A stretch of 34,340 nt of DNA from Polyangiaceae bacterium (GTDB lineage: Bacteria; Myxococcota_A; Polyangia; Polyangiales; Polyangiaceae): positions 80,760-115,099 of the forward strand of contig DASXHD010000111.1 in the NCBI GenBank assembly GCA_036488725.1. Direction: 5' to 3'. Shown piece after piece: positions 11,722 through 34,340 of this stretch. A model generated the notes under the pieces. The model saw only the letters and a program-made list of their open reading frames with translations, had not been told where the DNA came from and searched no databases. Numbering within the stretch: position 1 is the stretch's first letter; each line of letters opens with the position of its first letter. Made by a program: the position numbers and the translations under genes.

Positions 11722-12380
11722 CGATGGCTCGGCAACCTAAGACCGAAATGAGCGCGCTGCCATTTCTGCCGAAAAAACGAGTGACGCTCGCGACGCTCGC
11801 CGACGCAGCGCGAGCGTGCCGCGGATGCCCGCTCTACGCGCGCGCGACGCAGACCGTGTTCGGCGCGGGCCCGGCGAGCGCGCGCGTGATCCTCGTCGGC
11901 GAGCAGCCGGGCAACGACGAAGATTTGAGAGGCGCGCCGTTCGTCGGCCCGGCCGGACGCGTGCTCGACAAGGCGCTCGCCGCGGCGCACATCGATCGAC
12001 GCGAGACCTACGTCACCAACGTCGTGAAGCACTTCAACTGGGTCGCGACGACCGGCAGCCGGCGCCTGCACAAGAAACCGTCGTCGCGCGAAGTCTCGGC
12101 GTGCTTGCCGTGGCTCGAAGAAGAAATCGTTCTGATCAAACCAGACGTCGTCGTTCTTCTCGGCGCGACCGCGGCGCAAGCCATCCTCGGGCGAGATTTC
12201 CGCGTCACGAAAGACCGCGGCAAGCTCCTCGCGACGCGCTTTGGAGCACGTGCGCTCGCGACGGTGCACCCCTCGTCGATCCTTCGGCAGCGAACGCACG
12301 AAGACCGCGCGCGCGAGACGGAGCGCTTCGTCGCGGACCTCGCCGTCGTCGCCAAGCTCATTCACCGCAGAGCGGCGTGA
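11706..12380 (+). CDS. udgX: UdgX-like family-4 uracil-DNA glycosylase (covalent uracil-DNA binding type)
   Basis: GEQPGNDEDLRGAPFVGPAGRVLDKAL (family-4 motif A). VHPSSILRQ (motif B). An R-loop insertion VVKHFNWVATTGSRRLHKKPSSREVSACLPW closely parallels the UdgX KRRIH loop, with the His retained. TTG at 11706; in-frame ATGs at 11724 and 11748 are more likely starts. Confidence 0.8.
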   Translation: MRPSSPMARQPKTEMSALPFLPKKRVTLATLADAARACRGCPLYARATQTVFGAGPASARVILVGEQPGNDEDLRGAPFVGPAGRVLDKALAAAHIDRRETYVTNVVKHFNWVATTGSRRLHKKPSSREVSACLPWLEEEIVLIKPDVVVLLGATAAQAILGRDFRVTKDRGKLLATRFGARALATVHPSSILRQRTHEDRARETERFVADLAVVAKLIHRRAA

Positions 12381-12381
12381 A

Positions 12382-13392: not shown

Positions 13393-13432
13393 CCGCCGAT
13401 GCGGTGCACGCGTCGTACCATGCGGCCCAGCC

Positions 13433-14746: not shown

Positions 14747-14786
14747 GCGCAGTCGACAGCGGCGAATCGAGCCCTACCCTTTCGCG

Positions 14787-15260
14787 ATGACCGCTCCGAA
14801 ACCCGTCGCGATCCTCGCCGCCGAAGCTCCGCCCCGCACGAAACCGTCGAATTACCCCGAGCCGTTCGCCTCGCGCATGAAGGGGCGGGAAAAGCGGCCT
14901 TTGGGCGATCTCTTCGGTTTGAAAAATTTCGGCGTGAACCTCACGCGGCTCGCGCCGAACGCTTCGTCCGCGCTTCGACACGCACACTCGAAACAAGACG
15001 AATTCGTCTACGTGCTCGAAGGACGCCCGACGCTCCACACCGGCGCCGGCAAGACGCGTCTCGCTCCCGGCATGTGCGCCGGGTTTTCAGCGGGCGGCGA
15101 CGCGCATCGTTTGATCAACGAGACGACCGACGACGTCGTCTACCTCGAGATCGGCGACCGCACGCCGGGCGACGAAGGCTCGTATCCGGACGACGACATT
15201 CGCGCCGAGCTCGTGGGCGGCGCGTGGCGTTTCGTGCACAAAGACGGCACGCCTTATTGA
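14787..15260 (+). CDS. Cupin-domain protein
   Basis: 157-aa ORF with a cupin-like beta-barrel signature (HAHSKQDEFVYVLEGRPTLHTGAG...GMCAGFSAGGDAHRLIN). It lies 40 bp downstream of the Prim-Pol gene on the same strand. Confidence 0.6.
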   Translation: MTAPKPVAILAAEAPPRTKPSNYPEPFASRMKGREKRPLGDLFGLKNFGVNLTRLAPNASSALRHAHSKQDEFVYVLEGRPTLHTGAGKTRLAPGMCAGFSAGGDAHRLINETTDDVVYLEIGDRTPGDEGSYPDDDIRAELVGGAWRFVHKDGTPY

Positions 15261-15991
15261 GCGCTGAACGGCTCGAGGCCGATTTCGAGCGGCCGCTCGG
15301 GCGTCGCGGCCATCTCGAGGTGCGCCTCGCGCGTCGTGCGGTAGTCGCTCGGCGCGTCCTCGCCGAGCCGTCGCGCGAGGCCGCGCGCGAAGACGAGCTC
15401 GTGCGGCGCGATCCACTCGACGCGCACGCGCGCAGGCTCGCACACCGAGACGCCGCGCTCGGAGAGGAACTGCACGACGTCCTCGCTGCCGTCGATCGTC
15501 GGCCACTCGCGCTGGTGATCGCGCGGCATGTGCCAGCGCGCGCCGTCGAGCTGCACGACGACCTTCGCGCCGGCGCCGTCTTCGAGCGTGATCGCATCGG
15601 CGGAGCGACTCTCGAAGAGGATCTTGTCGGGATGGTCCGACGCCGTGACGACCACGCGATAAAAAATGCACGGCGGCGCCCCGAGCGGTGCGTGCCGCGC
15701 GTGCTCGGTGAAACCGACGAGCCCCGCGGCCGTGACGAGGCCCGGCTCGAGGCTCGCGAGCGGCGTCGGCATCGCGCCGAGCTTCGCGCGCGGCGTGCGA
15801 CGCGGGGCACGCCGAATCACTTCGCGCGCGAGGATGCCGACCGAGACCATTCCGACCGTCGCGGCGACGAGCGCTTTCACTTGATGCAAGTGCAGCAGAA
15901 TCCAACCGACGACGATGAGACCGGTTCCGAGGATCAGAAAGAGCCCGCTGAACGCGCAACCGAAGCCGTCGTCGTCGTCGTCGTCCAGCAC
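15254..15991 (-). CDS. Hypothetical membrane protein with poly-Asp N-terminus and two TM helices
   Basis: GTG start directly abutting the ligase stop. MLDDDDDDGFG, then hydrophobic helices (FSGLFLILGTGLIVVGWILLHL; ALVAATVGMVSVGILA). No recognisable catalytic motifs. Confidence 0.45.
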   Translation of the reverse strand: MLDDDDDDGFGCAFSGLFLILGTGLIVVGWILLHLHQVKALVAATVGMVSVGILAREVIRRAPRRTPRAKLGAMPTPLASLEPGLVTAAGLVGFTEHARHAPLGAPPCIFYRVVVTASDHPDKILFESRSADAITLEDGAGAKVVVQLDGARWHMPRDHQREWPTIDGSEDVVQFLSERGVSVCEPARVRVEWIAPHELVFARGLARRLGEDAPSDYRTTREAHLEMAATPERPLEIGLEPFSAQ

Positions 15992-17068
15992 TCAGCCTCC
16001 GAAAATCTTGGCGACCTCGTACGGCGGCGTCACGTCGAGCTGGGCGTAGGTGCAATCTTTCGGTTCTTTGTCGGGTCGCCATCGCTTGAAGTGCGTCGCG
16101 TGGCGGAAGCGGCGGCCCTGCATGTGATCGAACGAGACCTCGCACACGCGCTCGGGGCGAAGCGGCTCCCACGACAAATCTTTGTTCGCGTTCCAACGGC
16201 TCTTCATGCCGGGTTTTCGCTGCGCGGCTTGCGCGTCGTCGTGCTCTTTCCAGTCGGCCCACGGGTGATTCGCGAGCGCGTTCTCGCGGAGCGGCGCGAG
16301 CTCGGCGACGAGCTCCTTGCGACGCTCGGTCTTGAACGACGAGCAGATGCCGACGTGCTGCAGGTCCCCGCTGTCGTCGTAGAGGCCGAGCAAGAACGAG
16401 CCGATCGCTTCTTCCTTCGAGCCCTTGTACCAGCGGAACCCGGCGAGCACGCAGTCGCACGTGCGCTCGTGCTTGATCTTGAGCATCGTGCGCTTGCCGG
16501 GCGAGTAGACGAGATTTTCGTCTTTCGCGACGACGCCGTCGAGGCCCGCGCCTTCGAAGCGATTGAACCAATCCGTCGCGAGCGCGCGGTCGCGCGTCGC
16601 GGGCGTCAGGTAAATCGGCGGCGTCGCTTTGCCGAGCGCGGCCTCGAGGCTCGCGCGGCGTTCTTTTTGCGGGCGCGCGCGAAGATCGTCTTCGCCGAGC
16701 GCGAGCATGTCGAACGCGACGTACGACGCGGGCCACTGCGACGCGAGCATCTTGATGCGCGACTCGGCCGGGTGAATGCGCTGAAGCAGCGCCTCGAACT
16801 GGAGCGCGCCGTCGCGCGCGATCACGATTTCGCCGTCGAGCACGCAGCGCTCGGGGATCTGCGCGCGGAGCGGTGCGGCGAGCTCGGGAAAGTAACGCTG
16901 GAGCGGCTTGAGATCGCGGCTCTGAATCTGAACGTCGTCGCCGTCGCGAAAAACGATCGCGCGAAACCCGTCCCACTTGGGCTCGAAGATGAAATTCTCG
17001 CTCTCGGGAATGCCGCTCGTGAGCTTGGCGAGCATCGGCTCGATCGGCGGTTGGAAAGGGAGCTTCAT
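15992..17068 (-). CDS. ligC: Stand-alone ATP-dependent DNA ligase (LigC-like, ~358 aa)
   Basis: Motif I adenylation lysine in EPKWDGFRAIVF. Downstream nucleotidyltransferase and OB-domain motifs (DGEIVIA, VAFDML, EGLVAKD, KIKHERTCDCVLAGF). Start ATG at 17066-17068 (MKLPFQPPIEPM) overlaps the stop of the upstream gene (ATGA). The track ORF extends to 17317 with a GTG start. Confidence 0.85.
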   Translation of the reverse strand: MKLPFQPPIEPMLAKLTSGIPESENFIFEPKWDGFRAIVFRDGDDVQIQSRDLKPLQRYFPELAAPLRAQIPERCVLDGEIVIARDGALQFEALLQRIHPAESRIKMLASQWPASYVAFDMLALGEDDLRARPQKERRASLEAALGKATPPIYLTPATRDRALATDWFNRFEGAGLDGVVAKDENLVYSPGKRTMLKIKHERTCDCVLAGFRWYKGSKEEAIGSFLLGLYDDSGDLQHVGICSSFKTERRKELVAELAPLRENALANHPWADWKEHDDAQAAQRKPGMKSRWNANKDLSWEPLRPERVCEVSFDHMQGRRFRHATHFKRWRPDKEPKDCTYAQLDVTPPYEVAKIFGG

Positions 17069-17817
17069 AGTTTGGCCGTCCACTTGTAGCCGCCGCCCGG
17101 CTTGCTCGTGAGCTCGACGTTGCCGTGCATCGGTTTCTTGTCGCGCGTCGTGAACGTGCACGTCGCCTTGCCGCCGCTGAACACGACCGGACCCGCGCCG
17201 CAATCGACGTCGACGCCGCTCGGGTGCTTGGCCTTCGCCGTGTCGCCGACCGATTTCGTGAGGTCGGCGGACAGGTCTTCGCCCTTTCCCACCGGCGCGT
17301 CGAGCGTGGTCGACCACTCACCCCACGTGCCGTCGGTGTCGACTTTGGTGCGCTCGACCTGCGCGGTCACGCTCGCGCCGTTGTCGCCCGCGAGCGTGCA
17401 GCTCGTCTTCGTGTCGGCGTCGGCGATCTCGGGACAAGTGCACTTCGTGAACGCGAACTTGGCGTAATTTTTCTCGAGCGACTTTTCGACTTCTTGGCGA
17501 TTGGTGAGCACCGGCGCCGGCGGCACGATCGGCGTCGGCTCGTAACACATCTCTTCGCGCGAGCTCGAGCCGGGGAAGCGCGTGACCGTGCCCGAGCAGC
17601 TCGACGCGCCTTTCATCGCGGTGAAGGCGAACGTGAACGGACCTTTGAACGTGACCTTCGGGCTCGCGTATCCGTCGGCCTCGAGATCGGAGCGCACCGT
17701 CGCCCACGATTTGAGCACCCAAAGGCCCGGAACGAGAACGAGCAGCGCGACGACCCCGAGAGCGATGAGCCCGGGCCCCAAGCTCGAGCGTGGCTTCGGC
17801 GTCGGCGCGTAGTTCAC
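17065..17817 (-). CDS. Signal-anchored secreted protein with tandem Cys-pair (DUF4333-like) repeats
   Basis: N-terminal TM/signal segment LIALGVVALLVLVPGLWVL. Two repeats with paired cysteines (CTCPEIADADTKTSCTLAGDNGASVTAQV and DCGAGPVVFSGGKATCTFTT) resemble actinobacterial DUF4333 lipoprotein domains. Its stop overlaps the ligase start. Confidence 0.5.
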   Translation of the reverse strand: MNYAPTPKPRSSLGPGLIALGVVALLVLVPGLWVLKSWATVRSDLEADGYASPKVTFKGPFTFAFTAMKGASSCSGTVTRFPGSSSREEMCYEPTPIVPPAPVLTNRQEVEKSLEKNYAKFAFTKCTCPEIADADTKTSCTLAGDNGASVTAQVERTKVDTDGTWGEWSTTLDAPVGKGEDLSADLTKSVGDTAKAKHPSGVDVDCGAGPVVFSGGKATCTFTTRDKKPMHGNVELTSKPGGGYKWTAKL

Positions 17818-17843
17818 GTGCGGATGCTACACGAACGTCGACG

Positions 17844-18449
17844 ATGAAGTGCAGCACGCTTCAGCTCGGTTTGTTCGCGCGCGAGCCGCTCGCGATCGAC
17901 GAGACGTTCGCGCGCGCCGAACGCGTGGAGCTCGGACCGAACGCGTGGGTCGAGATCGTGCGCGGGTGGGTCCGCGGCGATCGCGAGCTCTTCGATCACC
18001 TCGTCGCGACCGCGCCATGGCGCGACGAAGAGCGCGTCATGTACGACCACGTCGTCGCCGTCCCTCGGCGCATCGCCGTGCTCGATCGCTTGCATTCTAC
18101 AATCATTCGCGTGCGTGAATCGCTGGACGCGCGCTACGCGACGAGCTTCGAGCGGATCAGCGTGGCGCACTACCGCGACGGCCGCGACAGCGTCGCGTGG
18201 CACGGCGACTATGTCGCGCGCAAGCTCGACACCGCGCTCGTCGCGACCGTCTCGCTCGGCTCGCCGCGGCGCTTTTTGATTCGGCCCAAAGGCGGCGGCC
18301 CGTCGCGCGCGTGGACGCTCTCGGGCGGCGATCTCGTCGTGATGGGCGGGACGTCGCAACGCACGCACGAGCATTCGGTTCCCAAAGTCGCGAGCGCGGG
18401 GCCGCGCGTCGCGCTCATGTTCCGTCCGGTCTGGCACGAGCCGACGTAA
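17844..18449 (+). CDS. alkB: AlkB-family Fe(II)/2-oxoglutarate-dependent DNA/RNA demethylase
   Basis: HxD...H triad and flanking AlkB motifs: VAWHGDYV, VSLGSPRRFLIRPKGG, GDLVVMGGTSQRTHEHSV, RVALMFRP. Track ORF is 17790-18449; the ATG at 17844 (MKCSTLQ) is the likely start. Confidence 0.8.
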   Translation: MKCSTLQLGLFAREPLAIDETFARAERVELGPNAWVEIVRGWVRGDRELFDHLVATAPWRDEERVMYDHVVAVPRRIAVLDRLHSTIIRVRESLDARYATSFERISVAHYRDGRDSVAWHGDYVARKLDTALVATVSLGSPRRFLIRPKGGGPSRAWTLSGGDLVVMGGTSQRTHEHSVPKVASAGPRVALMFRPVWHEPT

Positions 18450-18458
18450 GATGATCGC

Positions 18459-19862
18459 ATGCGCCGCTCGGCCCTCGTCGTCCTCGCGATGGTCGCGGTC
18501 ACCGCGCGCTGCGACACGAAGCCCGGCGCGCGCACGTGCGTCATCGTGCCGCCGCAAACTGATTTTCGGCTGACGACGAGCGGAACGAATTTCGTCGACA
18601 GCCTCGGCCGCATCGTCATCTTGCGCGGCGTCGACGCGGGCACGCGGAGCAAGTTCGCGCCGTTCGTTCCGTTCGATTTCGGCGACGACTACGAAGGTGC
18701 ACTTGCAAAATACATGGATCATGCCGCGTCGTGGGGCGTGGACGTCTTCCGCGTGCCGTGGGTTTGGGCGGCGCTCGAGCCGACGCAAGGTCAAGACGAC
18801 GCGACGTGGCTCGGTCGCTTCGACGAATTCATCGACGCCGCGTGGGCGCGCGGAATCTGGACAGTGCTCGACTTTCATCAGGACGTGTACTCCGAAAATT
18901 TTTGCGGCGACGGCTTCCCCGGTTGGACGCTGACGAATCCGCCCGCGCCGCATCACGACTGCGCCGTTTGGTCGACGGCCTACGCGACCGACCCGGTGAA
19001 GGCGGCGTTCGATGCCTTCTGGTCGGACGCGGGCGGCGTACAAACGGCTTATTTTTCGGCCTGGGACGTGATGATTGCAAGATACAAGGATCGTCCGGGC
19101 GTCCTCGGCTTCGAGCCGATCAACGAGTGCTCTGGCGGCTCGCAAGACGACGACACGTTCTCGGCGACGACGCTCTCGGATTTTTACGCCAAGTTCGTCG
19201 CGCACGCGCGCTCGCTCGCGCCCGAGTCGCTCGTCTTCCTCGAGCCGAGCGGAACGAGCGGCGTGACGCTCGCGACGACGCTCGTGCGCCCGCCCGGCGA
19301 CGGCATCGTCTTCGCGCCGCACTTCTATCCGCTCGATGCGCGCCCCGAGAGCGTGCAAGACAACTTGCAAAAGCTCCAAGCGATCGGCGCCGCGTGGAAC
19401 GTCCCCACGTGGGTCGGCGAGTTCGGCGCGACGAACCTCCTCGACTCGACGCCCGCGCGCATGCAAGCGACGTGGGCCGCGATGGACGCGCTCGGCGTGA
19501 GCGGCACCGAATGGGAGTACAGCACCGCGACCGAGCTCTGGGACGCCGAGTCGTGGTCGCTCACCGACGCGAGCGGAAACGATCTTCCGGTCGCCGCGGC
19601 CATCTTGCGTCCCTACGCGCGCGCGATCGCCGGCACGAGCCCGTCGATGGGCTTCGACACGACGACGAGCACGTTCTCCCTCGCCTACGCGCCGACCGGC
19701 GGCATCACACAAGTCTCGCTGCCCGCTCGCGCGGCGCCGAACGGCTGGGACATCGCACTCGAAGGCGCCTGCTGCGACGCAACGACCGTCCCCGGCCAAA
19801 TGCTCATCCAACCCGATCCAACCGCAACGAACGTATCTCTCTCCATCACGCCAAAGAATTAG
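18459..19862 (+). CDS. Secreted glycoside hydrolase family 5 (cellulase / endoglycoceramidase-like)
   Basis: Signal peptide MRRSALVVLAMVAVTARC. GH5 catalytic acid/base region GFEPINEC. Typical (beta/alpha)8 spacing, with a second Glu region around VGEFG. Confidence 0.7.
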   Translation: MRRSALVVLAMVAVTARCDTKPGARTCVIVPPQTDFRLTTSGTNFVDSLGRIVILRGVDAGTRSKFAPFVPFDFGDDYEGALAKYMDHAASWGVDVFRVPWVWAALEPTQGQDDATWLGRFDEFIDAAWARGIWTVLDFHQDVYSENFCGDGFPGWTLTNPPAPHHDCAVWSTAYATDPVKAAFDAFWSDAGGVQTAYFSAWDVMIARYKDRPGVLGFEPINECSGGSQDDDTFSATTLSDFYAKFVAHARSLAPESLVFLEPSGTSGVTLATTLVRPPGDGIVFAPHFYPLDARPESVQDNLQKLQAIGAAWNVPTWVGEFGATNLLDSTPARMQATWAAMDALGVSGTEWEYSTATELWDAESWSLTDASGNDLPVAAAILRPYARAIAGTSPSMGFDTTTSTFSLAYAPTGGITQVSLPARAAPNGWDIALEGACCDATTVPGQMLIQPDPTATNVSLSITPKN

Positions 19863-21595
19863 GAAGCGCGCGCCGCGCGATGCTCACGGACGCGCTCGAG
19901 CGGCTGCGCGGTCAAGACGTGCTCTTTGCCGAGCCAACCGCGGCGCGCGATGCCGACGCCGAATTTCAAGAACGTGAGCTCGCGCGTCGAGTGCGCGTCC
20001 GAGTCGATGACCACGCGCACGCCCATCTCGCGCGCCATGCGCAGGCCGTTCTCCGGCACGTCGAGGCGAAGCGGCGAGGAGTTGAGCTCGATCGCGACGC
20101 CGGTTTTCGCGAGCGCGCGGAGCACAGCCTCGAGATCCAGATCGCTCCCGTCGCGCTGGCCGAGCATGCGCCCGAACGGGTGACCGAGCGCGTCGATGCG
20201 GCCCGACTCGATCGCGCGGACGACGCGCTTGGTCATCTCTTCGCGCGGCATGCCGAGCTTGGAGTGCACGCTCCCGACGACCCAGTCGAGCTTCGGAAGA
20301 TCGTCGGCGAGGTCGAGCGATCCGTCGCCGAGAATGTCGGTCTCGATGCCCGCGAGCACGCGAATCGTGTCGCCGACCTTTTCGTCGACCGCGCGAATGT
20401 TCTTCACGTGCTCGCGCAGGCGCTCCGCCGAGAGACCGTTTGCGATCGTGAGCGACACCGAGTGATCGGTGATGGCGATGTACTTGCGACCGGCCTCGCG
20501 CGCCGCGAGCGCCATCTCTTCGATGCTCGCGCGCCCGTCGCTCTCGGTCGTGTGCATGTGGAGATCGCCGATCAGGTCGGCGAGCTCGACGAGCACGGGC
20601 AGCGCGTTCGCCTTGGCCGCTTCGATTTCGCCCCGATTTTCCCTGATTTCAGGCGGCATCCACCGAAGACCGATCGCCTCGTAGACGGCTTCTTCGGTCT
20701 GACCAGCGATTGATTTTTCGTCCGGATCGAAGACGCCGTACTCGCTCACTTTGAGTTTTTTCTTCACCGCGAGCGTGCGCATCGCGACGTTGTGATCTTT
20801 CGATCCGGTGAAGTATTGCATCGCTGCGCCGAACGATGCGGGCGGCACGACGCGCAAGTCGGATTGGATTCCGCTCCGCAGGACGACGCTCGTCTTGGTC
20901 TCGCCGCGCGCGAGGACTTCGGCGACTTGAGGCATCGACGCGAACGACTCCATGATGGCCGGCGCGGCCGAGGCGTCGGCGGCGACGAGCACGTCGAGAT
21001 CGCCGACCGTCTCGCGCCGCCGCCGCAAGCTCCCGGCGAACTCGCACTGCACGACGCCCGGGACGGCGCGCATGCGCGCGACGATGCCTTCGGCGATCCC
21101 GAGCGCTTCGGCCATCGGCCAACGCTTGGGCGCCGACGCGCGCGCGCGCCACGCGGCGATCGACGTGAGCAGCTTCTCTTCGCGCTTCTGTCCGAAGCGC
21201 GGCAGGTCCCTGAGCTTTCCTTCTTTCGCGGCCGCCTCGAGCGCGTCGACGGTCGTGATGCCGCGCTCTTTCCAAACTTGCTGCGCCGTCTTCACGCCCA
21301 TGCCCGGAACGTTCATGAGCTCGGCCACGCCGGGCGGGAGCTTCGCGCGAGCTTTCTCGAGATCGTCGAGCTTGCCCGTCTCGACGAGCTCGGTGATTCG
21401 CCGCACGGCGCCGTCGCCGATCCCGGCAGTTTTTCCGAGCGTGCCCGCTTTCACTTTCGGCGCGATCGCCTCGCCCATTCCTTCGATCGCGCGCGCCGCG
21501 GCGCGAAACGCGCGCACTTTGAACGGCACCTCGCCGAGCAGCTCGAGCACGTCGGCCAGATCGAGGAACGCAGCCGCGATGGCGTCGTTGTCCAC
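19859..21595 (-). CDS. polX: DNA polymerase X family protein with C-terminal PHP phosphoesterase domain
   Basis: Pol beta-like N-terminus with HhH motifs (LMNVPGMGVKTAQQV). Nucleotidyltransferase GSLRRRRETVGDLDVLV. PHP domain LHMHTTESDG...AITDHS...DSDAH. Convergent 4-bp overlap with the GH5 gene. Confidence 0.85.
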   Translation of the reverse strand: MDNDAIAAAFLDLADVLELLGEVPFKVRAFRAAARAIEGMGEAIAPKVKAGTLGKTAGIGDGAVRRITELVETGKLDDLEKARAKLPPGVAELMNVPGMGVKTAQQVWKERGITTVDALEAAAKEGKLRDLPRFGQKREEKLLTSIAAWRARASAPKRWPMAEALGIAEGIVARMRAVPGVVQCEFAGSLRRRRETVGDLDVLVAADASAAPAIMESFASMPQVAEVLARGETKTSVVLRSGIQSDLRVVPPASFGAAMQYFTGSKDHNVAMRTLAVKKKLKVSEYGVFDPDEKSIAGQTEEAVYEAIGLRWMPPEIRENRGEIEAAKANALPVLVELADLIGDLHMHTTESDGRASIEEMALAAREAGRKYIAITDHSVSLTIANGLSAERLREHVKNIRAVDEKVGDTIRVLAGIETDILGDGSLDLADDLPKLDWVVGSVHSKLGMPREEMTKRVVRAIESGRIDALGHPFGRMLGQRDGSDLDLEAVLRALAKTGVAIELNSSPLRLDVPENGLRMAREMGVRVVIDSDAHSTRELTFLKFGVGIARRGWLGKEHVLTAQPLERVREHRAARAS

Positions 21596-21846
21596 GGCCT
21601 AAGACTCCAAAAGCCGCGCGACCTGATGGTTTCGCGCGGTCGCTGCAGCGAGAAACGCGGCAGCGTCGATGGACCGGCCGAGCCGGCGCCAGGCCCGGCG
21701 TGGGATGCAACTGCGGCGAGGGTCACGCCGCCGGCGCGCGCCGAAAGTGCCAAGCGGCGGCCTGGCCGCGCGCTTGCCGCTGCCGCGCGTCGTCGTCGCT
21801 GCCTCTGCAAGACTCGATCGCCTCAATCGCTTCCGAGTCTAGCAGG

Positions 21847-26701: not shown

Positions 26702-26778
26702 GCGATCAGACTACGTCAGTTTGTACGGTCGCGTCAGCCCGGCGGGGACCGGTCGTCCGTGATATGGTCGCCGCGTCT

Positions 26779-26855
26779 GCGCCACTAGCTCAGCTGGATA
26801 GAGCGACGGCCTCCGGAGCCGTAGGTCAGAGGTTCGAATCCTCTGTGGCGCGCCA
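26779..26855 (+). tRNA. tRNA-Arg (anticodon CCG)
   Basis: Manual cloverleaf fold. Acceptor gcgccac/gtggcgc. D arm gctc-agctggata-gagc. Anticodon stem acggc/gccgt with loop ctCCGga. T arm agagg-ttcgaat-cctct. Discriminator g plus encoded CCA. 77 nt. Confidence 0.9.
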
Positions 26856-28185
26856 CCCTGGACGACGGGATTTCCGCGGTGTCCTCCACCGCGCCGGCGC
26901 GCACTGAGTCGGCAACTTCGGACGTCTGCACCACTATTGCACCACCCCGATGGTCGGCGACCGCCAGCGCGGTGACCGCTGGCTCCGCGATGCGCTCCTC
27001 CGGCTCGGGCGGGTTGAAGCGGAGCCTATTTACTTCGCTGCGTAAGTAGTCGGGCGCGAGGTGCCCGTACACGTCGACGGTAATGCGCGGGTCGCGATGG
27101 CGGAGGATGCGTTGGACGGCGGCGGCGTTCGCGCCCGCTTGCATCAAGAGCGACGCGGTCGTGTGCCGGAGGTCGTGGAACCGAATCGGTCGCACCTTCG
27201 CGATGGGCCAGAGCTTCGGGTTCTTCTTGCCGTGCTGCGTCGGGCAGCGGCGGACGCCGCCGTCGGCCGCCATCTCGGAGTAGCCGCACTTGCGGCACCG
27301 ATGCTCGTAGCCCGTGACGATGCCGGCATGCTTCATCGCGCGCCGCAAGACCTCCTCGAGCGGCGTGTGCGAGCTGCGCATGCTGCCGTCGTCGTCCGGG
27401 AACACGTAGTCGCTCGAGACCGGCGAGGCCGCGAGCGCCGCCTCGAGGTACGGCACGAGCTCGTCGGCGATCGGCACCACGGCCGCATGTCCGCTCTTCG
27501 TCGTGTCGCGGTCGTACGACCGTGAGACCATGATGAGGCGCGCGTCGAGGTCGACGTCGAGCTTCTTCAGCCCGATGATCTCGCCGCGGCGCATCCCGCT
27601 GTAGATGGCGGTCGCCAGCATCCCGCGCCACTTCGGCGGCGTGTGCGTCAGCACCGGCAGCACCTCGTGCGCCCGAAGGTACTGAGGCGTCCGCTGCGGC
27701 ACCTTGCGGCGCTCCACGTCTTGGACGGGGTTCGGGCCGCCGAAGCGGCCCGCCTTGCGCGCTTTCGAGAAGGCGCTGAAGAGGAAGCGGCGGAGGTGAT
27801 TCAAGGACTGCGGCCCGAGCTTGCCCGCCTTCGCTTGCAAGAACTCCTCGATCGTGCCGGGCGTGATCTCCGCGAGTCGGAGCTTCGCGAGGCCCGAGTC
27901 GACGATGTGGAGATTGACCGTCGCTTTGTTGCGCTCGTGTGAGGTGCTCTTGCTCGAGTACGTCTCGAGCCACCAGTCCATGAGCGCGTGCAGCGTGCCG
28001 CCGCCGTCCTCGTCAGGCATCGCCTCGAGGCCGAGCCGCTGACGTTCGGCGCGCCGCTCGAGATCGTCAGCGAGACGGCGCGCTTCTGTTTTCGTGCGCG
28101 CCGTCGTCGGGCGCATCACGCGCTTGCCGCGGTGGTCCTTGTACTTGACGTACCAGCGCGGCCCACGTTGGAAGACTGATGCCAT
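26785..28185 (-). CDS. int: Tyrosine-type site-specific integrase (phage/ICE integrase)
   Basis: ATG at 28183-28185 preceded by a GGAGAA Shine-Dalgarno. N-terminal SAM-like/arm-binding region. Catalytic region HDLRHTTASLL...RILRHRDPRITVDVYGHL (R..H-R-H..Y). The ORF has no stop until 26785, so it reads antisense through the whole tRNA-Arg gene. Confidence 0.85.
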   Translation of the reverse strand: MASVFQRGPRWYVKYKDHRGKRVMRPTTARTKTEARRLADDLERRAERQRLGLEAMPDEDGGGTLHALMDWWLETYSSKSTSHERNKATVNLHIVDSGLAKLRLAEITPGTIEEFLQAKAGKLGPQSLNHLRRFLFSAFSKARKAGRFGGPNPVQDVERRKVPQRTPQYLRAHEVLPVLTHTPPKWRGMLATAIYSGMRRGEIIGLKKLDVDLDARLIMVSRSYDRDTTKSGHAAVVPIADELVPYLEAALAASPVSSDYVFPDDDGSMRSSHTPLEEVLRRAMKHAGIVTGYEHRCRKCGYSEMAADGGVRRCPTQHGKKNPKLWPIAKVRPIRFHDLRHTTASLLMQAGANAAAVQRILRHRDPRITVDVYGHLAPDYLRSEVNRLRFNPPEPEERIAEPAVTALAVADHRGGAIVVQTSEVADSVRAGAVEDTAEIPSSRVARHRGFEPLTYGSGGRRSIQLS

Positions 28186-28207
28186 TGGTTCTCCTCGAAA
28201 TGGAGCA

Positions 28208-28414
28208 CTACTTGCGCTTGAGCGCCACGACCGTCGCGCGCGGCGAGGACTTCTCGCCGCGCGCGAACGCCTCGATGGCCCCACGCTCGAAGCGCAGCAA
28301 GCCGCCCACGCGAAGCGCAGGCAAGTCGCCGACTTCGGCCCGGTGGTACACCCAAGACCGCGAGACCCTGAGAAATGTGGCGACGTCCGCTGCTGTCCAG
28401 AGCGATTCGCTCAC
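28208..28414 (-). CDS. xis: Excisionase / AlpA-like HTH DNA-binding protein
   Basis: 68-aa ORF MSESLWTAADVATFLRVSRSWVYHRAEVGDLPALRVGG. This is the classic excisionase/MerR-like winged helix. It lies immediately upstream of int on the same strand. Confidence 0.7.
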   Translation of the reverse strand: MSESLWTAADVATFLRVSRSWVYHRAEVGDLPALRVGGLLRFERGAIEAFARGEKSSPRATVVALKRK

Positions 28415-29046
28415 GGCTTCACCAGCGAGCGGCGTATCGACGGGAACGGGAAGACTAGGTCGCCGATTGCGCTGAACGCTTTGGTGAAGCGCTCGTGTTC
28501 TTCGAGGTCACCGGTCGCGGGCATGAAGATGATCACGTTGGCGTGCGTCGGCGACGACATCGGCACGAGCGTCCCGTGTTGGTCAACGAAGAACTTGGTG
28601 CGTTCCGCCGGCACGCACATCGGGAAGTTGAGGGCTGAAGGCAGGCTTCCGTCGCCTTGTGACAGGCGCAGGATCTCCAAGGTAAATCCAACGAAGACGA
28701 CGGACGCCGCCCTGAACGCCAGCCACTCGCGAACCGCCTTCCAATAGAACATCTGCGCAAGGCTCCGGTTGCCCACTTTGCCTCCCGGCGGATTCACGAA
28801 GACGCGACCCAACCACGGACGCGTCAGCCCATCGTCCTCGGCGGTGAGGAAGGTCTTCGCGCCAACGACCGTGTTGGCACGGGCGGAACTCGCCGGATCA
28901 AAATCAATGTCGCCCATCACCGCCTTCGTGGCGCCGATGATCAGCGGGGGCGTGATATACTCGGAGCTCTTGCTGCTGTGCTGAGGAATTCGCACTGCGC
29001 GATCAGCGGCCGCCGCGTCCTTCGCGTGCATGCGACGAGCCATCAC
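28411..29046 (-). CDS. Phage Dam-family (PF05869-like) N6-adenine methyltransferase homolog with NPPG in place of the NPPY catalytic motif
   Basis: EYITPPLIIGATKAVMGDIDFDPAS...TAEDDGLTRPWLGRVFVNPPGG matches the characteristic W/Y-TP...G-IDLDP...DGL..W.G.vFvNPPY pattern of phage Dam proteins. The DNA confirms aat ccg ccg gga (N-P-P-G). GTG/ATG start at 29046/29043 overlaps the upstream stop. Confidence 0.55.
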   Translation of the reverse strand: MMARRMHAKDAAAADRAVRIPQHSSKSSEYITPPLIIGATKAVMGDIDFDPASSARANTVVGAKTFLTAEDDGLTRPWLGRVFVNPPGGKVGNRSLAQMFYWKAVREWLAFRAASVVFVGFTLEILRLSQGDGSLPSALNFPMCVPAERTKFFVDQHGTLVPMSSPTHANVIIFMPATGDLEEHERFTKAFSAIGDLVFPFPSIRRSLVKP

Positions 29047-29252
29047 GATGCTCCCCCGCTCTGGAACAGTCCTTTCAACGGGACTCCGACATCGGCGAGA
29101 TCGCGCTCGATGCGACTGCGCTCGTCCGGCGTGATCGCGACGCGCTCGGCGATGATTCTGCTCAAGCGCGTTTCCGAAATAGCGAGCGTGCGAGCGGCGA
29201 GATAGATAGTGCGGTGCTTCTTTTGAAGCGCCATCTTGAGATTGAAAAGCAT
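29043..29252 (-). CDS. Small helix-turn-helix (Cro/XRE-like) regulator
   Basis: ATG at 29250-29252 preceded by a strong SD (GGAGGTcacATG). MLFNLKMALQKKHRTIYLAARTLAISETRLSRIIAER has an HTH signature. The track ORF extends to a TTG at 29270. Confidence 0.5.
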   Translation of the reverse strand: MLFNLKMALQKKHRTIYLAARTLAISETRLSRIIAERVAITPDERSRIERDLADVGVPLKGLFQSGGAS

Positions 29253-29323
29253 GTGACCTCCGGGCCGCAATTGGTTACGGCGGCCTCCTAGGTCACAGTC
29301 GCGCAGCTCCGCACAAGCGCGCT

Positions 29324-30619
29324 CTACGTGATCATTTCAAGTTTCTTTTGCCCGTGGTCGAGCATAGCGATTTCGAGGATCGTCCTCGCGTGGCTCTCAC
29401 TGATGCGTACCGGTCCACCAGCTCGGCGTTTGGCCCGAACACCAAGGCGCAACTCAGCTTCCTTCAACAGCGCGGGCACATCGTCGTCGCGCCGCAGTAA
29501 CCCATCAGCCACTGCTTCTTCGACAAAGTCGGCGAGACATGTCCACGCCTCCCGCGTCGACGTGCCCTTGAGCTGCTCTCGGACCCGCACCCTCCAGTCG
29601 GCGTCCAGCAAGTAGCCGCTCCCGTCACGTTCGGGCGCGCAACCGGCGAGCTCGATGGCATCGTTCAGCGCGTTGCGCACCGTCGTTTCCGCGAAGTCGA
29701 GTTGTCGCGCGACCTCGGCGATCCTCCAGCCTTCGCGCACCGGCCGTTGGCGCGCCACCAAACCGTTGCACGGTTCTGACTGACCTTCTTCATTGTAGTC
29801 GGGCTCGATGCCATGGTCTTCGGACACCCGCACCGTCACCGATGTGAGGCCCCGCTTACGGAGTTTCGTCTTGCGATCGTTGGCGAAGACCTTCGCGACG
29901 TATTGGGCGGGAATGCCGGTCTCGCTTGGAACGTACGCGCGCAGAATGTCTTGTTTCCGATCCAGTGTTGTCGCGACAAGGTTTTGTTGCTCGTCCTCGA
30001 TGCTTTCGCGCGTCTTCTTTGCAACCGCTCGGAGCGCACATTCGAACGTCTTCCACTCGCGCGCGTGCTCGGCGGTGTCGTTCGCGCTCGCCAGCAATAC
30101 GTCGGGGCGAAGCGCACGGAACATTGCCCATGCTTTGTTCCGAAACATGAAGGAGCGTTCACACAAGCCCTCCACGTGCTCGACCACCCTAACGGCATCA
30201 ATGAAACGGACCGCGGGCCACATTGCGGCCACGAGCTCGGCCTCGCAGTCAAAGACCTGCCGAAGCTCGTCTTCAGCCGGAGCGGGGTCAATAACGCCGC
30301 AGCGACTCGTGCGAAAGAAGTCCACCATTCTATCGATGAGGCGCTTGCCTTTGTGGAATGCCGTCATTCCGGTCGTCACGTCGGGAGTAAAGCCTGGCAT
30401 GTCCAGCTGCAGAAACACGATGTACGGTTCGGCGTAGGTTCCCTTCGCGAAGTCCAGAATCTCGGACCTGATCTCATCATCGAGCGGACCGAAAACCGCG
30501 TGCTCGTCCTCGGCCTGCTGGCACGCGATGTATTCCGCCAACGCGTCCGGAGTAGCGGTCCTCTGTAGATTTACGCCGGCTTGACGCGTCCGCTCTTCTA
30601 GGTCTTTCGAACTAATCAC
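29324..30619 (-). CDS. Hypothetical island protein (~430 aa) with C-terminal sigma-70 region-4-like HTH
   Basis: Long non-Arg-rich ORF. HTH near the C-terminus (GWRIAEVARQLDFAETTVRNALNDAIEL). No catalytic motif recognised. The 5' end is uncertain. The GTG at 30617-30619 is the first in-frame start that does not overlap the divergent ParB-like gene. Track ORF runs to 31168. Confidence 0.45.
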   Translation of the reverse strand: MISSKDLEERTRQAGVNLQRTATPDALAEYIACQQAEDEHAVFGPLDDEIRSEILDFAKGTYAEPYIVFLQLDMPGFTPDVTTGMTAFHKGKRLIDRMVDFFRTSRCGVIDPAPAEDELRQVFDCEAELVAAMWPAVRFIDAVRVVEHVEGLCERSFMFRNKAWAMFRALRPDVLLASANDTAEHAREWKTFECALRAVAKKTRESIEDEQQNLVATTLDRKQDILRAYVPSETGIPAQYVAKVFANDRKTKLRKRGLTSVTVRVSEDHGIEPDYNEEGQSEPCNGLVARQRPVREGWRIAEVARQLDFAETTVRNALNDAIELAGCAPERDGSGYLLDADWRVRVREQLKGTSTREAWTCLADFVEEAVADGLLRRDDDVPALLKEAELRLGVRAKRRAGGPVRISESHARTILEIAMLDHGQKKLEMIT

Positions 30620-30751
30620 CGGCAACAGGTTTCGGCCGGGGCCCGTGGGTGTCAAGGCGAACTTTTTTTCCCGGCGCGTCGCTTGTGCGGACCGGCGTGA
30701 CTGTTGTCCATGCGCCGACGCCTTTAAGTTTCGGCGGCGCACGGAGACCCA
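30620..30751. promoter_or_regulatory. Divergent intergenic region on the island, presumed bidirectional promoter/operator
   Basis: ~130-bp non-coding gap between the head-to-head unknown gene (minus) and ParB-like gene (plus). Contains a TTGACA hexamer and a T7 run (gaactttttttcc). No -10 element could be assigned confidently. Confidence 0.3.
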
Positions 30752-32770
30752 ATGCCCACCCCGAAAGACGAGACGAACGCGAAGATGACGAGCACGGTGC
30801 CCGCATTCGACGGAAGCGCCACAGCGAACGATCAGCCCACCGCCCCACCGTCGCAACTCGGCAGTCGCCTGCGACGCGGGAAGCGAAGCGCGACGCTGTT
30901 GGCTCCGCTCGACTCGGCCGCAGAAGACAGCGGCGCCGAGAAGAACCTGGAAGTCGCCATCGGAGCGCCCGCGAGTCCCGTGTTCGGCGCCGCGCTCGCG
31001 CTGCGCGGGACGAAGACGCAGACGCTCGAGACGAAGAAGACGACAACGCCCGAGGTCACCACTGCACCCGATGACATCCCGGTCGGGCGCATCGACGAAG
31101 CCGAGGAGCTCGTCGTCACGCCGCCGCTGCAGCCGGCGGTGCTCACCGAACCCACGACGTGCCCGCACCCGCTACTGCAGCGTCTCGGCGACCACAGGTG
31201 CGCCCTCTGCGGCTGCATCGTGACGGCGCCGCCCACGTCGTCGGTCGCTCCGGCACCGAACGGCATCATTCCGGAAAGCGAGTGGAGCGACGAGCAGCGC
31301 GCTCAGGACAAGAAGATCGCCGAGATGAAGGCGCGCATCGAGCACGAGATGGGCCTTGAGCCGACTCCGCCCTTGCCACACCTCCCGGCCGTCGCCGTAA
31401 CCGAAGTCAGCTTGGGCGCACCGGCAACGCGTGGGGACCCCCCCGCGGCGATCGCCGAGCCGCCGCCCGCGAAGGCCGATGACCGGTCGCTCGCCGACAT
31501 CATCTTCTCCTGCGAACATCCGGACCATCTTCGCAGTGCGACGGGATGCGCGGCGTGCGGCGCGGGCCTGAGACTCATCGAGTCCATCGACGCCGGCAAG
31601 AAGCTCAACGCGCAGCTGGCCGCGCAGGCCGCCGCAACCGCGCAGCAGGCGCCGGACAAAACACTGCCCGACGTGAGCGCAGAAGCGGGTACAGCTTCCC
31701 CGGACGTCGGCGGGTCGGTGCCGGGGACGGCGGAGAGCTCGCCGTCGGTCGAGCGCGGCGGCGACAACGACGTCGCCGGCGATCACCCAGGGCAGCTCGC
31801 GCCCGATCGCGGCGAGAACGGCGAGCCGCTGTACCACGCCGCGTGCCTCGCGTTCCCCGAGCCGACCGAGCCCGAGATGGCCGAGCTCATCGAGAGCGTG
31901 CGCGTCCACGGGGTCCAGCACGAGGGCGTGCTCTTCAAGGGCAAGGTGCTCGACGGTCGCAGCCGCGAGATTGCGTCGCGTCGAGCAGGCGTGCGGATGC
32001 GCTGGCGCGAACTGCCCGCGGGGATCGACCCCATCGACTACGTCACGGCTGCGAACGTGACCCGTCGAAATCTCACGCCTGGTCAGCTCGCGATGGCGGC
32101 AGCAGCGCTCGTGCCTCTCATCACGGAAGCGGCGCGCGAGCGTCAGCGCGCCGGTCTCGGCTCGGATGGCAGCGGAGGCCGCGGGAAGAAAACCCTGGCG
32201 CCAGATGGCGCCAAGGTTCGTGCGCCGAAGGCCGCGGGCATCGCCGCGGCGAAAATCGGCGCCAAGGCGCGCAACGTCGAGCGCGCCTTGGTCGTCGAGG
32301 AGCGCGGAGCGCCGGAGACCGTGGCTGCCGCGCGGGCGGGCACGCTGCCGCTAGCAACCGCCGAGATGCTCGCGCAGCTCCCGGCGCAGGAGCAGACCGA
32401 GGCAATCGCCGCGGGGCCCGACGCCGTTCGCGCAGCGGCGGCGAAGTTCCGCGGGAATCTGAAAAACCGCACCAATCGCAAGACGAAAGCGGACCGCTCC
32501 CCAGTTACCTACGAAGACGCGGCGGCGAAGAACGCCAAGACCGCGGAGACTCGTGCGAACGACTCGAACGATTCAGTCGTCGCGTTTACCCCGGGGGACA
32601 AACTCGCCGGAATGCAGGACGTGCTGTGGGCCCTGCACGCGATCGAGGCCTTCTTGCGTGCCTCGGGCGCATTCGAGCCATCGTCGCAGCTCGAGCGCGT
32701 GCGCAGCGACCTGCACGACCTCGACGAACTGCTCGCGAAGCTGATCACTCCGGCGGCGGTGACACGATGA
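30752..32770 (+). CDS. ParB/Srx-like nuclease-domain + HTH protein with ~380-aa low-complexity N-terminal extension carrying two Cys/His knuckles
   Basis: ATG with an SD (GGAGacccaATG). ParB N-domain MAELIESVRVHGVQHEGVLFKGKVLDGRSREIASRRAGV (GxRR-like arginine motif). ParB-type HTH IAAAKIGAKARNVERALVVEE...LPLATAEMLAQL. N-terminus is acidic and Ala/Pro-rich, with repeats TCPHPLLQRLGDHRCALCGC and SCEHPDHLRSATGCAACGAG. Confidence 0.7.
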   Translation: MPTPKDETNAKMTSTVPAFDGSATANDQPTAPPSQLGSRLRRGKRSATLLAPLDSAAEDSGAEKNLEVAIGAPASPVFGAALALRGTKTQTLETKKTTTPEVTTAPDDIPVGRIDEAEELVVTPPLQPAVLTEPTTCPHPLLQRLGDHRCALCGCIVTAPPTSSVAPAPNGIIPESEWSDEQRAQDKKIAEMKARIEHEMGLEPTPPLPHLPAVAVTEVSLGAPATRGDPPAAIAEPPPAKADDRSLADIIFSCEHPDHLRSATGCAACGAGLRLIESIDAGKKLNAQLAAQAAATAQQAPDKTLPDVSAEAGTASPDVGGSVPGTAESSPSVERGGDNDVAGDHPGQLAPDRGENGEPLYHAACLAFPEPTEPEMAELIESVRVHGVQHEGVLFKGKVLDGRSREIASRRAGVRMRWRELPAGIDPIDYVTAANVTRRNLTPGQLAMAAAALVPLITEAARERQRAGLGSDGSGGRGKKTLAPDGAKVRAPKAAGIAAAKIGAKARNVERALVVEERGAPETVAAARAGTLPLATAEMLAQLPAQEQTEAIAAGPDAVRAAAAKFRGNLKNRTNRKTKADRSPVTYEDAAAKNAKTAETRANDSNDSVVAFTPGDKLAGMQDVLWALHAIEAFLRASGAFEPSSQLERVRSDLHDLDELLAKLITPAAVTR

Positions 32771-33753
32771 GCGCCTCGGTTCTTGGCGTCGGGCGTCCGA
32801 ATCCCATGGAGCGCGTCGGGCCCTGGATCAAACACTTTCCAGGCGGCAAAGGGCACAACAACTGCCCGCGCTTCTACTACGTGCGCGATGGATTCGGATG
32901 CACATACAACTGCCATTATTGCTATTTGCGTCGCTTCGAGAATCTTCATCCGGATGGCGCGGAGTTCGATCCGAAGTTTGAGCGGCTCTACTCCGAGGTA
33001 AAGGCGTGGATGAAGCGGCCGGGCCGCAACGCATTGCTCCTCGGTGAAGTTACCGACGGGTGGGGCTGGACGCATATCGAAAAAATTCTCGAACGCAACC
33101 TGCAGCTCATCGTGATGTTTCGCGCGCAGCAGTCGCACACGCTAATCACGTTGACGAAGGACAGCCACGTGATGCAGCGTCTCGCCGGTATCACGCCGAC
33201 GGACCGCGTGGTCCTTTCGTGGAGTTTGAACCCGCCGGCGATCGCGGACTTGTACGAGATGGGCGCGAAGCAAGCAGAGGCGCGCATCGCAGACGCGGCA
33301 CGCGCCCGCGAGGCAGGCTGGCGCGTTCGCGTTCGGATCGATCCGATGATTCCGATTGCCGAGTGGCAACGACATTACGCGGAACTCGCCAATGTCGTGC
33401 GCGACCGAGTTCGACCCGAGCTCGTGACGTGTGGGTCGTGGCGTCCGCGCCCCCAGGACCCAATGATGAAGTCCGCGCCGCCGGAGATGACGGCGCATTT
33501 GGAGAAGGGGCCTGACGGACGCCTGCGCCTGAAGAACCGGATCGAGATGTACGAGACGGTCTGGGCGATTCTTGGCTCCGACATCACGCGCAGCCTCTGC
33601 AAGGAGGAACTCGACGTCGAAGCTTGGCTCTACACCGAGCACGGTGAGGTGATGCAGGCGTGCAACTGCCTCGGCGAGCCCGTCGTCCCAGTCAGCCGCC
33701 TGCACGTCAGTGCGGCGCTCCAGGCGCGCGCGCGTGTGGAGGTGCGCCGATGA
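32767..33753 (+). CDS. Radical SAM enzyme of the SplB / DNA-repair-photolyase-like (COG1533) type
   Basis: CX3CX2C cluster in the context GFGCTYNCHYCYL, typical of the spore-photoproduct-lyase family (C..C.YCY). Start ATG overlaps the ParB-like stop (ATGA). It is in frame with an upstream Arg-rich artefact (track ORF 31546-33753). Confidence 0.7.
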   Translation: MSASVLGVGRPNPMERVGPWIKHFPGGKGHNNCPRFYYVRDGFGCTYNCHYCYLRRFENLHPDGAEFDPKFERLYSEVKAWMKRPGRNALLLGEVTDGWGWTHIEKILERNLQLIVMFRAQQSHTLITLTKDSHVMQRLAGITPTDRVVLSWSLNPPAIADLYEMGAKQAEARIADAARAREAGWRVRVRIDPMIPIAEWQRHYAELANVVRDRVRPELVTCGSWRPRPQDPMMKSAPPEMTAHLEKGPDGRLRLKNRIEMYETVWAILGSDITRSLCKEELDVEAWLYTEHGEVMQACNCLGEPVVPVSRLHVSAALQARARVEVRR

Positions 33754-33878
33754 AGAGCATCACCGAGATCATTTTCGGAGCCTTCCCCGGCCGTCGCCTC
33801 GAAGCCGCCGTGCACGAAGTTGGGCACTTTGCTCTCGCCGTCGCCGGCGGCGGCCTTCCAAGGCCCGCTTGGCCATGA
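33750..33878 (+). CDS. Small ORF with HExxH zinc-peptidase-like motif (42 aa), possibly the 5' part of a frameshifted or split gene
   Basis: MKSITEIIFGAFPGRRLEAAVHEVGHFALAV contains HEVGH. ATG overlaps the rSAM stop (ATGA). It ends with a TGA that itself overlaps the ATG of the next ORF in the -1 frame. Confidence 0.3.
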   Translation: MKSITEIIFGAFPGRRLEAAVHEVGHFALAVAGGGLPRPAWP

Positions 33879-34228
33879 ACATCGCCATCGCCGAAGACAT
33901 CGGTGGTTACACCGCCGAGGCTCGGCACACGGCTAGGACTGTCGAGGATCTACTCGAGCGGACCGACGACGACGACGGAGACTTGTTGCACGCCGTCGGC
34001 TGGGCCTCCTCGTACCTCGGCGAGCCGATTCAAGACGAGGACTGGCGCGCCGCGTCGGTCGACGCGAGCAAGCTCGTTCACCGAAATGCTCGGGACGCGG
34101 ACGCCTACCTCGCGGAGCATTGGCCGACGGTAATGCGCATGGCCCGCGCGCTCGATACCCGCGGCTCGCTCACGGAGCGAAGCATCGCTGCCTGGGCTTC
34201 CCGCTTCTCCGCCTTGGACCATCGCTGA
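33876..34228 (+). CDS. Hypothetical acidic protein (117 aa), last gene of the coupled island operon within the window
   Basis: MNIAIAEDIGGYTAEARHTARTVEDLLERTDDDDGD... The ORF starts at an ATG overlapping the previous stop. Track ORF is 33710-34228. No family assignable. Confidence 0.3.
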
Positions 34229-34340
34229 CGCTGAGCCGCCGGAGAGGAGCACGGAGGCAAGGGCGACGGGAAGCGGGCACGAGCCGACGGAGCGACTGCC
34301 GTTGTAGAGGAACGTCGGCGACGGCTGCTGGGGGAGCTGC

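Follow-up and report, generated by a model that had tools for sequence, protein, structure and literature searches.

From position 26779 onwards, the window (the whole 34,340-nt stretch analysed here, positions 80,760 to 115,099 of contig DASXHD010000111.1 in assembly GCA_036488725.1 of a Polyangiaceae bacterium) contains a tRNA-Arg(CCG) gene followed by nine open reading frames (ORFs), which we read as the visible part of an integrative element (Table 1). The first of these ORFs is a tyrosine integrase gene (int) whose 3' end lies inside the tRNA gene; the others include an excisionase-like gene (xis), a methyltransferase homolog, a weakly HigA/XRE-like helix-turn-helix (HTH) protein, a large protein without family (p405), and a rightward pair of genes for a ParB-like and a radical SAM protein. 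The original prediction had placed an integrative element at the 3' end of this tRNA, with integrase, excisionase, HTH regulator, methyltransferase homolog and ParB-like genes following it. Our analysis recovered the tRNA, the only one detected by ARAGORN in the window, and each of these genes (PF00589, PF12728, phrog_111 and a profile match to PDB Noc), and likewise agreed that the element is cut by the window edge, which coincides with the contig end. The integration at the tRNA 3' end was also supported, by the int gene running into the tRNA, the displaced tRNA fragments in relatives, two independent contigs with the same junction (L003 and L004) and the similarity to the integrase of the myxophage Mx9. 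The locus is thus very probably a genuine but ordinary tRNA-integrated element of the Mx9-like group, in which the attachment (att) site lies within int, truncated by the contig end and of mosaic GC content. The DNA from about 26804, inside the tRNA 3' half, to beyond 34340 would represent the left arm of this mobile element.

Table 1. Features of the window, with the integrated element first and the chromosomal flank last; positions are those of the 34,340-nt stretch.
Feature	Position	Strand	Basis or remark
tRNA-Arg(CCG), integration target (attL side), 77 nt including CCA	26779-26855	+	ARAGORN
Inferred att core, ~50 nt, tRNA 3' end back to anticodon-stem 5' strand	26804-26855		From relatives, not this element
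Tyrosine integrase (int), 466 aa	26785-28185	-	PF00589 1.7e-22; phrog_1 1e-63
Excisionase-like HTH_17 protein (xis), 68 aa	28208-28414	-	PF12728 4.5e-9
Phage-type Dam-like methyltransferase homolog, 211 aa	28411-29046	-	PF05869 3e-4 (sub-threshold); phrog_111 5e-13
Weak HigA/XRE-like HTH protein, 75 aa	29043-29270	-	TIGR02607 2e-4, below cut-off; IMG call = 69 aa
25-nt inverted repeat, left copy	29295-29319		Upstream of leftward operon (75-aa HTH protein, methyltransferase homolog, xis, int)
p405, 405 aa, no family	29324-30541	-	Lowest GC in window (60.8%, third-position GC 0.73)
25-nt inverted repeat, right copy	30680-30704		48 nt upstream of ParB-like gene
ParB-like protein, 672 aa	30752-32770	+	ParB/Noc-like domain and HTH at ~residues 355-560
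SPL-family radical SAM protein, 328 aa	32767-33753	+	PF20903 1e-9; PF04055 2.6e-4; TIGR04070 4e-10
ORF, 42 aa	33750-33878	+	Called by IMG and Logan
p117, 117 aa, last complete gene before 34340	33875-34228	+	Called by IMG and Logan
2901-aa GH94 ORF (GH94 supersandwich and catalytic, glucoamylase-like domain)	171-8876		
DNA damage-tolerance/repair cluster	8806-21598		DnaE2-like polymerase, LigD primase-polymerase, ATP-dependent ligase, AlkB-like oxygenase, PolX
Imm1-family immunity protein, 100 aa	26399-26701		Directly before tRNA, chromosomal side

The int ORF has no stop before a TAG codon at 26785-26787, inside the tRNA gene, and its product ends in 22 residues (ARHRGFEPLTYGSGGRRSIQLS) that are read antisense through the tRNA, starting at the tRNA 3' end and reaching the D-arm. 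GC at third codon positions (GC3) in int remains at 0.82-0.85 right up to the tRNA, and those active-site residues that an alignment to XerA covers (R, HxxR, H and Y) are present. Searches with this protein returned about 800 homologs at E <1e-10, the best 120 of which are 49-65% identical to it and mostly about 460 residues long. An in-frame antisense T-arm peptide (GFEP, GLEP, GIEP and similar) occurs in at least 101 of these 120 homologs, from several different tRNAs and at a median distance of 18 residues from the C-terminus; most of the other 19 show an RFEP variant or have the peptide in a different frame. Because the frame is conserved in about 90% of members, compared with the one third expected by chance, this pattern argues that reading into the att core would be a selected property of the integrase family. 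In four of the homologs (P0056, P0079, P0109 and P0119), as in Mx9 Int, the integrase is instead fused at its C-terminus to an HTH_17 domain.

The same junction was found on independent metagenome contigs. Both L003 (217 kb, ENA/NCBI) and L004 (38 kb, ENA) encode an integrase 62-64% identical to that of the window, and in each case int ends in a tRNA-Arg(CCG) with 100% identity to the window tRNA; the chromosomal flanks and cargo of these contigs differ (IS21, DUF3363, CdiI). Homologs of xis that are 61-70% identical lie directly upstream of int in L004 (70%), L005 and L006. In L005 (8291-17211), two tandem islands occupy one tRNA-Arg(CCG), in the order int (P0020), a 52-nt 3' fragment of the tRNA (9552-9603), a 7.6-kb island with its own integrase, and the true tRNA (17134-17211). 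The island nearer the tRNA is complete, with the fragment at one end and the true tRNA at the other; it measures about 7.6 kb and encodes a more distantly related integrase. ARAGORN also calls the 52-nt fragment as a tRNA. Two displaced fragments (1759-1804 and 4485-4518) and no tRNA are present in L006.

The fragments of L005 and L006 match the tRNA over a shared stretch and diverge beyond it (alignment A2), and on this basis the core has a length of about 50 nt and corresponds to a 52-nt sequence in the window, CGACGGCCTCCGGAGCCGTAGGTCAGAGGTTCGAATCCTCTGTGGCGCGCCA. Judged from its extent, the core would be an anticodon-type site, fitting the anticodon-centred 'A' class of Islander (PMC4383910). 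The int stop codon lies 5' of this core, placing the core within the ORF, so that the final six or so codons of the integrated int, together with its stop, belong to host DNA. The homologs P0020 and P0023, which abut a fragment and not a tRNA, diverge directly after ...GFEPLTYGSGG(RR), and we infer that integration and excision would change the C-terminus of Int here as well.

The proposed mechanism begins with an Mx9-like integrase, which would recombine a copy of the last ~50 nt of the tRNA carried by the element (the attP core) with the matching part of the chromosomal tRNA gene. This would restore the tRNA at attL and leave a displaced 3' fragment to mark the far end (attR). Because the core lies within the 3' end of int, the integrated gene would end in host codons, encoding RSIQLS and the TAG stop from the D-arm region of the tRNA. 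Excision, presumably under the direction of the HTH_17 protein whose gene lies immediately upstream of int, would exchange these few terminal residues for others. The identities of the genes, the overlap of int with the tRNA, the reading into tRNAs across the family, the att core of the relatives and the mosaic GC content are direct observations, whereas for this particular element an attR site, mobility, the extent of the C-terminal exchange and the kind of element are inferred.

Several observations weigh against integration at this site, the first of which concerns base composition. A visibly lower GC content had been predicted from the tRNA onwards, against values above 70% upstream. Two low-GC blocks are indeed present and speak for an acquired element, at 28186-30740 (61.9%, with z = -3 to -4.3 for its 1-kb windows and no upstream window as low) and at 32771-34340 (64.6%, minimum 62.7%), with the ParB-like gene between them at 69.9%. 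Directly 3' of the tRNA, however, the composition does not change: int has a GC content of 68.3% (GC3 0.88) and xis a GC3 of 0.85, whereas the mean upstream of the tRNA is 68.6% (1-kb windows, standard deviation 2.0, range 63.4-73.8), lower than had been claimed. The profile proposed as a check of the original prediction therefore shows no step at the tRNA, and the break in GC or codon usage expected at an island boundary is absent, the drop starting only at about 28.2 kb. Cargo genes in the low blocks have a GC3 of 0.71-0.80 as opposed to 0.80-0.88 in chromosomal genes, a modest drop that affects only some genes (0.71-0.78), and the GC profile as a whole is a mosaic and not uniformly low. Since int and xis resemble the host in composition, a heuristic that looks for a GC step would misplace the boundary by 1.4 kb, too far inside the element.

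Also to be set against integration is the lack of a visible far end. No copy of the tRNA 3' end was detected in 26856-34340 by exact 11-mers, gapless local scoring or a repeat finder, the best local score of 10 being equal to the shuffled background; the element is therefore either longer than 7.5 kb or without attR. One 9-nt match to the tRNA end (34043-34051) was rejected as a chance similarity, given its position inside the p117 ORF and a score no better than those of shuffles. Base 34340 is the end of the source contig in two assemblies, the JGI soil-metagenome contig 3300036792 Ga0376663_0000141 (87,825 bp, of which the window is the terminal 34.3 kb) and a 6.1-kb Logan contig from run SRR11834592 that is 100% identical to 28230-34340, and no sequence past this base was recovered from viral, metagenome and genome scans, with two weak, irrelevant matches in the metagenome scan. 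These contig ends suggest branches of the assembly graph, caused by strain variation or a repeat, at 28230 and 34340. The start of the Logan contig is located at a palindrome within xis (28234-28266).

The remaining points on this side concern annotation and gene content. The IMG calls leave 26702-28207 empty and do not include int, presumably due to its overlap with the tRNA. Scans of the IMG/VR viral contigs found no close relatives of the Int, ParB-like and radical SAM proteins, and the window contains no phage structural, conjugation or replication genes. The case for an integrative element nonetheless rests on evidence stronger than the GC argument, namely the overlap of int with the tRNA, the relatives and the homology to Mx9.

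The Xis protein scores just under the cut-off of TIGR01764 (2e-6; 28.0 bits versus 28.8 bits), and it gave the single match of the element proteins to the PADLOC defence models (mad1, through the HTH domain, 2e-9). The methyltransferase homolog has tblastn matches in 297 phage records, with a best identity of 38.5%. Its motif IV reads NPPG, and NPPG or NPPC is also found in its closest phage relatives, as opposed to NPPY/F (alignment A4); the activity or substrate of this protein may accordingly differ from those of canonical N6-adenine methyltransferases. No Pfam, PHROG, NCBIfam or PADLOC match was obtained for p405, just weak HTH hints at residues 269-297, and single-sequence AF2 models were poor both for this protein (pLDDT 36) and for the C-terminal half of the ParB-like protein (pLDDT 48).

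The p405 gene is flanked by an inverted repeat (CGCTTGTGCGGA..GACTGT) whose copies are complementary at 22 of 25 positions, with no such pair in 100 shuffles. The copies lie upstream of the two divergent operons and face the same way with respect to transcription, an arrangement that suggests a shared operator or promoter, with IS-like terminal repeats the less likely possibility: reading the repeats as the ends of an insertion sequence is not favoured, given that p405 has no transposase domain and that the copies sit in divergent promoter regions.

The ParB-like protein encoded by the first gene of the rightward operon combines an N-terminal half bearing a Cys motif with a C-terminal 64-residue domain, which is 59% identical to L031_453 and is common to the partner of the radical SAM protein in L031. 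Residues 362-548 match phage proteins annotated as ParB (tblastn, 29% identity, 9e-11), and a four-sequence profile (A3) searched against the PDB returned Noc (1e-6) and ParB (1e-4), together with Spo0J, KorB and sulfiredoxin. Pfam ParB_N did not match the 672-residue protein, and a homolog search with the protein returned itself alone. The label ParB-like stands on the profile search as a probable, distant relationship.

The start of the radical SAM gene overlaps the stop of the ParB-like gene, and its product, a member of the spore-photoproduct-lyase (SPL) family, matches the SPL structure 4fhg (1.4e-5) and retains the CxxxCxxC motif (alignment A1). NCBI attributes an identical protein to a Polyangiaceae bacterium, in Myxococcota, from which the host assignment follows. 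The clade to which it belongs, and to which the pair with a ParB-like gene is confined, is rare: a search of 5.8 billion proteins gave only 19 clusters at E <1e-5. Relatives at >=50% identity sit in mobile contexts. In a Polyangiales metagenome-assembled genome (L007), the radical SAM gene lies 1 kb from an integrase gene whose ORF runs into tRNA-Gly(CCC); the other strand carries a weak ParB-like gene close by. In L032, an island at tRNA-Pro(TGG) has the layout of the window, with the tRNA and a leftward int followed by divergent rightward genes for HTH_17, ParB-like and radical SAM proteins, and among the loci with the pair it is this one that is demonstrably a tRNA-integrating island. An overlapping ParB-like gene immediately upstream of the radical SAM gene was found in L032-34, L040 and L041-43; these partners are 35-49% identical to each other and share the motifs LDGHxRL and GRRNL(T/S), which are also present in the window protein. 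The pair spans 30752-33753 in the window, 5739-8154 in L032, 2-1961 in L040, 2476-4717 in L042 and 1845-4180 in L031. Relatives of the radical SAM protein at 30% identity, from Planctomycetota, were excluded as members of the module: their neighbours are housekeeping genes (formyltransferase-like and, as judged by eye with no domain search, metallo-beta-lactamase-fold hydrolase-like) and not ParB-like genes.

The literature searched gave no description of a ParB-like/radical SAM pairing, the sole component of this locus with possible biological novelty. We propose only tentatively, and with some doubt, that the translationally coupled pair is an uncharacterised DNA-targeting module of mobile elements. 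Possible roles include DNA repair or modification, and anti-defence or maintenance, with the ParB-like partner loading the radical SAM protein on DNA. Taken together, the phage distribution of the methyltransferase family, the ParB-like protein and the position of the radical SAM clade beside integrases at tRNA-Gly (L007) and tRNA-Pro (L032) indicate that the cargo is phage- or plasmid-like and probably part of a replication or maintenance region. The rightward operon (ParB-like protein, radical SAM enzyme and the two small ORFs), divergent from the leftward one, is likely to run on into replication genes.

A small non-phage element, that is, a satellite- or plasmid-like replicative island whose rightward operon leads into a primase-helicase, would account for this cargo, and we give it somewhat less than an even chance. 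Downstream of the pair, L041 has a 149-aa ORF and then a 1042-aa D5_N/DUF5906/Pox_D5 primase-helicase, islands of this integrase family can be as small as 7.6 kb, and ParB-like proteins are characteristic of the maintenance modules of plasmid-like elements. However, a replication gene is not visible in the window, D5-like primases occur in true phages too, and L041 has only the radical SAM protein in common with the window (58% identity), its ParB-like partner having no BLASTP match to that of the window, so that the genes beyond the pair may well differ between the two.

The integrated element might also be a prophage, the window covering the integration and early-gene arm of a temperate Mx9/Mx8-like myxophage. 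The integrase is closer to Mx9 Int than to any other protein in the phage records, the order of the methyltransferase, xis and int genes resembles mox...uoi-int of Mx8, the methyltransferase-like and ParB-like proteins both have many phage homologs, and low GC in early genes is common among prophages. Despite these similarities we consider a prophage rather unlikely. The 7.5 kb available include no structural or lysis gene, with no structural PHROG or Pfam match for virion, packaging or lysis functions in the nine element ORFs (7.5 kb only), nothing related was found in IMG/VR, and Int is the only protein for which similarity to Mx8 or Mx9 was detected. Furthermore, the integrase family elsewhere carries clearly non-phage cargo (IS21, DUF3363, CdiI, WYL, HATPase), and a tailed phage would need far more than the 7.6 kb of the complete island in L005.

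A decayed, immobile remnant, with attR lost or eroded and int and xis ameliorated, would be consistent with the host-like GC and GC3 of these two genes, with the attR not seen here and with the remnants of L006, which consist of att fragments only. This explanation is improbable, as int (466 aa, with its active-site residues) and xis are full-length and uninterrupted and the tRNA retains a perfect att core, and a host-like int would be expected of an element circulating among hosts of 68-70% GC, as its homologs do. A mis-joining of low-GC cargo to the tRNA-int locus during assembly, which the start of the Logan contig (28230-34340) at a palindrome in xis and the onset of the GC drop at about 28.2-28.4 kb might suggest, is very improbable indeed, since the join would fall inside a conserved gene (the xis ORF is unbroken across 28230, and residues 3-66 align to the Xis of L004), the JGI assembly spans 28230, and an NCBI-deposited metagenome-assembled genome is reported with the same radical SAM and ParB-like proteins on one 115-kb contig.

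The 26.8 kb to the left of the tRNA are ordinary chromosome. The 2901-residue GH94 protein suggests a cyclic beta-1,2-glucan synthase, and the repair cluster includes the lowest-GC stretches upstream of the tRNA (63-66% at 12-14 kb and 16-17.5 kb). Other genes of this flank encode a GH5 cellulase, an acyl-CoA dehydrogenase, MarR and RbfA. The Imm1 gene has no evident cognate toxin gene beside it.

The island itself is one more tRNA-targeting element in an uncultured Polyangiaceae genome, and as such routine. Its integrase carries a more general lesson: the att core stays within the int frame throughout a large, mostly metagenomic family of about 800 Mx9-like homologs, and annotation pipelines that mask tRNAs may therefore drop such a gene entirely, as the IMG calls did, and miss the island. 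Integrases with tRNA cores of about 50 nt are also candidate integration tools for Polyangiales, comparable to the Mx8 and Mx9 int-attP vectors in Myxococcus.

The tDNA islands of Islander (Hudson, Lau and Williams 2015) share with this locus a tyrosine integrase beside an intact tRNA, an identity block from the anticodon stem to the 3' end, and tandem arrays in relatives. One end of the element is formed by an intact tRNA-Arg(CCG) gene, and the tyrosine integrase gene next to this tDNA overlaps it. The displaced tDNA fragment that Islander places at the far end is present in L005 and L006 but was not seen in 26856-34340, and for the Islander length range of 2-200 kb the window gives a lower bound of >7.5 kb. 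Integrases that extend across attP are exempted by Islander, citing Mx8 and SSV (PMC4383910).

Comparison with 50,697 phage records identified Mx9 Int as the best match to the window integrase (tblastn, 32.6%, 5e-38), and BLASTP aligned the two proteins over residues 62-395 at 33% identity (E 2e-46), making Mx9 Int the nearest integrase that has been characterised. Both have a Cys-rich insert in the catalytic domain (CRKCGY...RRCP vs CRTQGCGY...RRCPAC), and the host phylum of Mx9 is also Myxococcota. The 548-residue Mx9 Int (GenBank AY247757; L029 607-2253) contains an antisense-tRNA-like peptide, AWEARALPTELPPR, that looks like a D-arm/5' half, and continues past it into an HTH_17-like C-terminal domain, whereas the window int stops about six codons past the predicted core and HTH_17 is encoded by a separate upstream gene. 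Integration of Mx9 could detach this excisionase-like domain from the enzyme. Mx9 further differs from what is visible here in being a complete tailed phage, and its tRNA-like segment does not match Arg-CCG. The Mx9 integrase and attP were reportedly described by Julien in 2003, and those of Mx8 (IntP and an attP inside the int coding sequence) by Tojo in 1996 and Magrini in 1999.

The Mx8 Int (L030 5208-6809) has an antisense T-arm peptide, ARSTGLEPV, followed by about 100 further residues, and the gene order of Mx8, with the methyltransferase gene (mox)...xis (uoi)-int, resembles that of the window. BLASTP found no similarity between the window and Mx8 integrases at E <1e-3, and the methyltransferase-like protein of the window did not match Mox, which belongs to a different family. 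Integration of Mx8, whose attP lies within int, creates a new int 3' end and alters the site specificity of the integrase, and a similar principle applies to Mx9 (PMC6070905). A long C-terminal stretch is swapped in Mx8, in contrast to the window, where only about six residues and the stop are host-encoded and the effect is probably small.

The fusellovirus SSV1-type also has its attP inside the int ORF and integrates at a tRNA gene (PMC4383910). The hosts of SSV are archaeal, and the window integrase has no sequence relationship to the SSV enzyme. SSV-type integration splits int into two inactive parts, unlike the arrangement described here, in which the whole catalytic domain stays intact when integrated. 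From these comparisons, the window integrase is predicted to work like those of Mx8 and Mx9, with a much smaller C-terminal swap and a separate xis gene.

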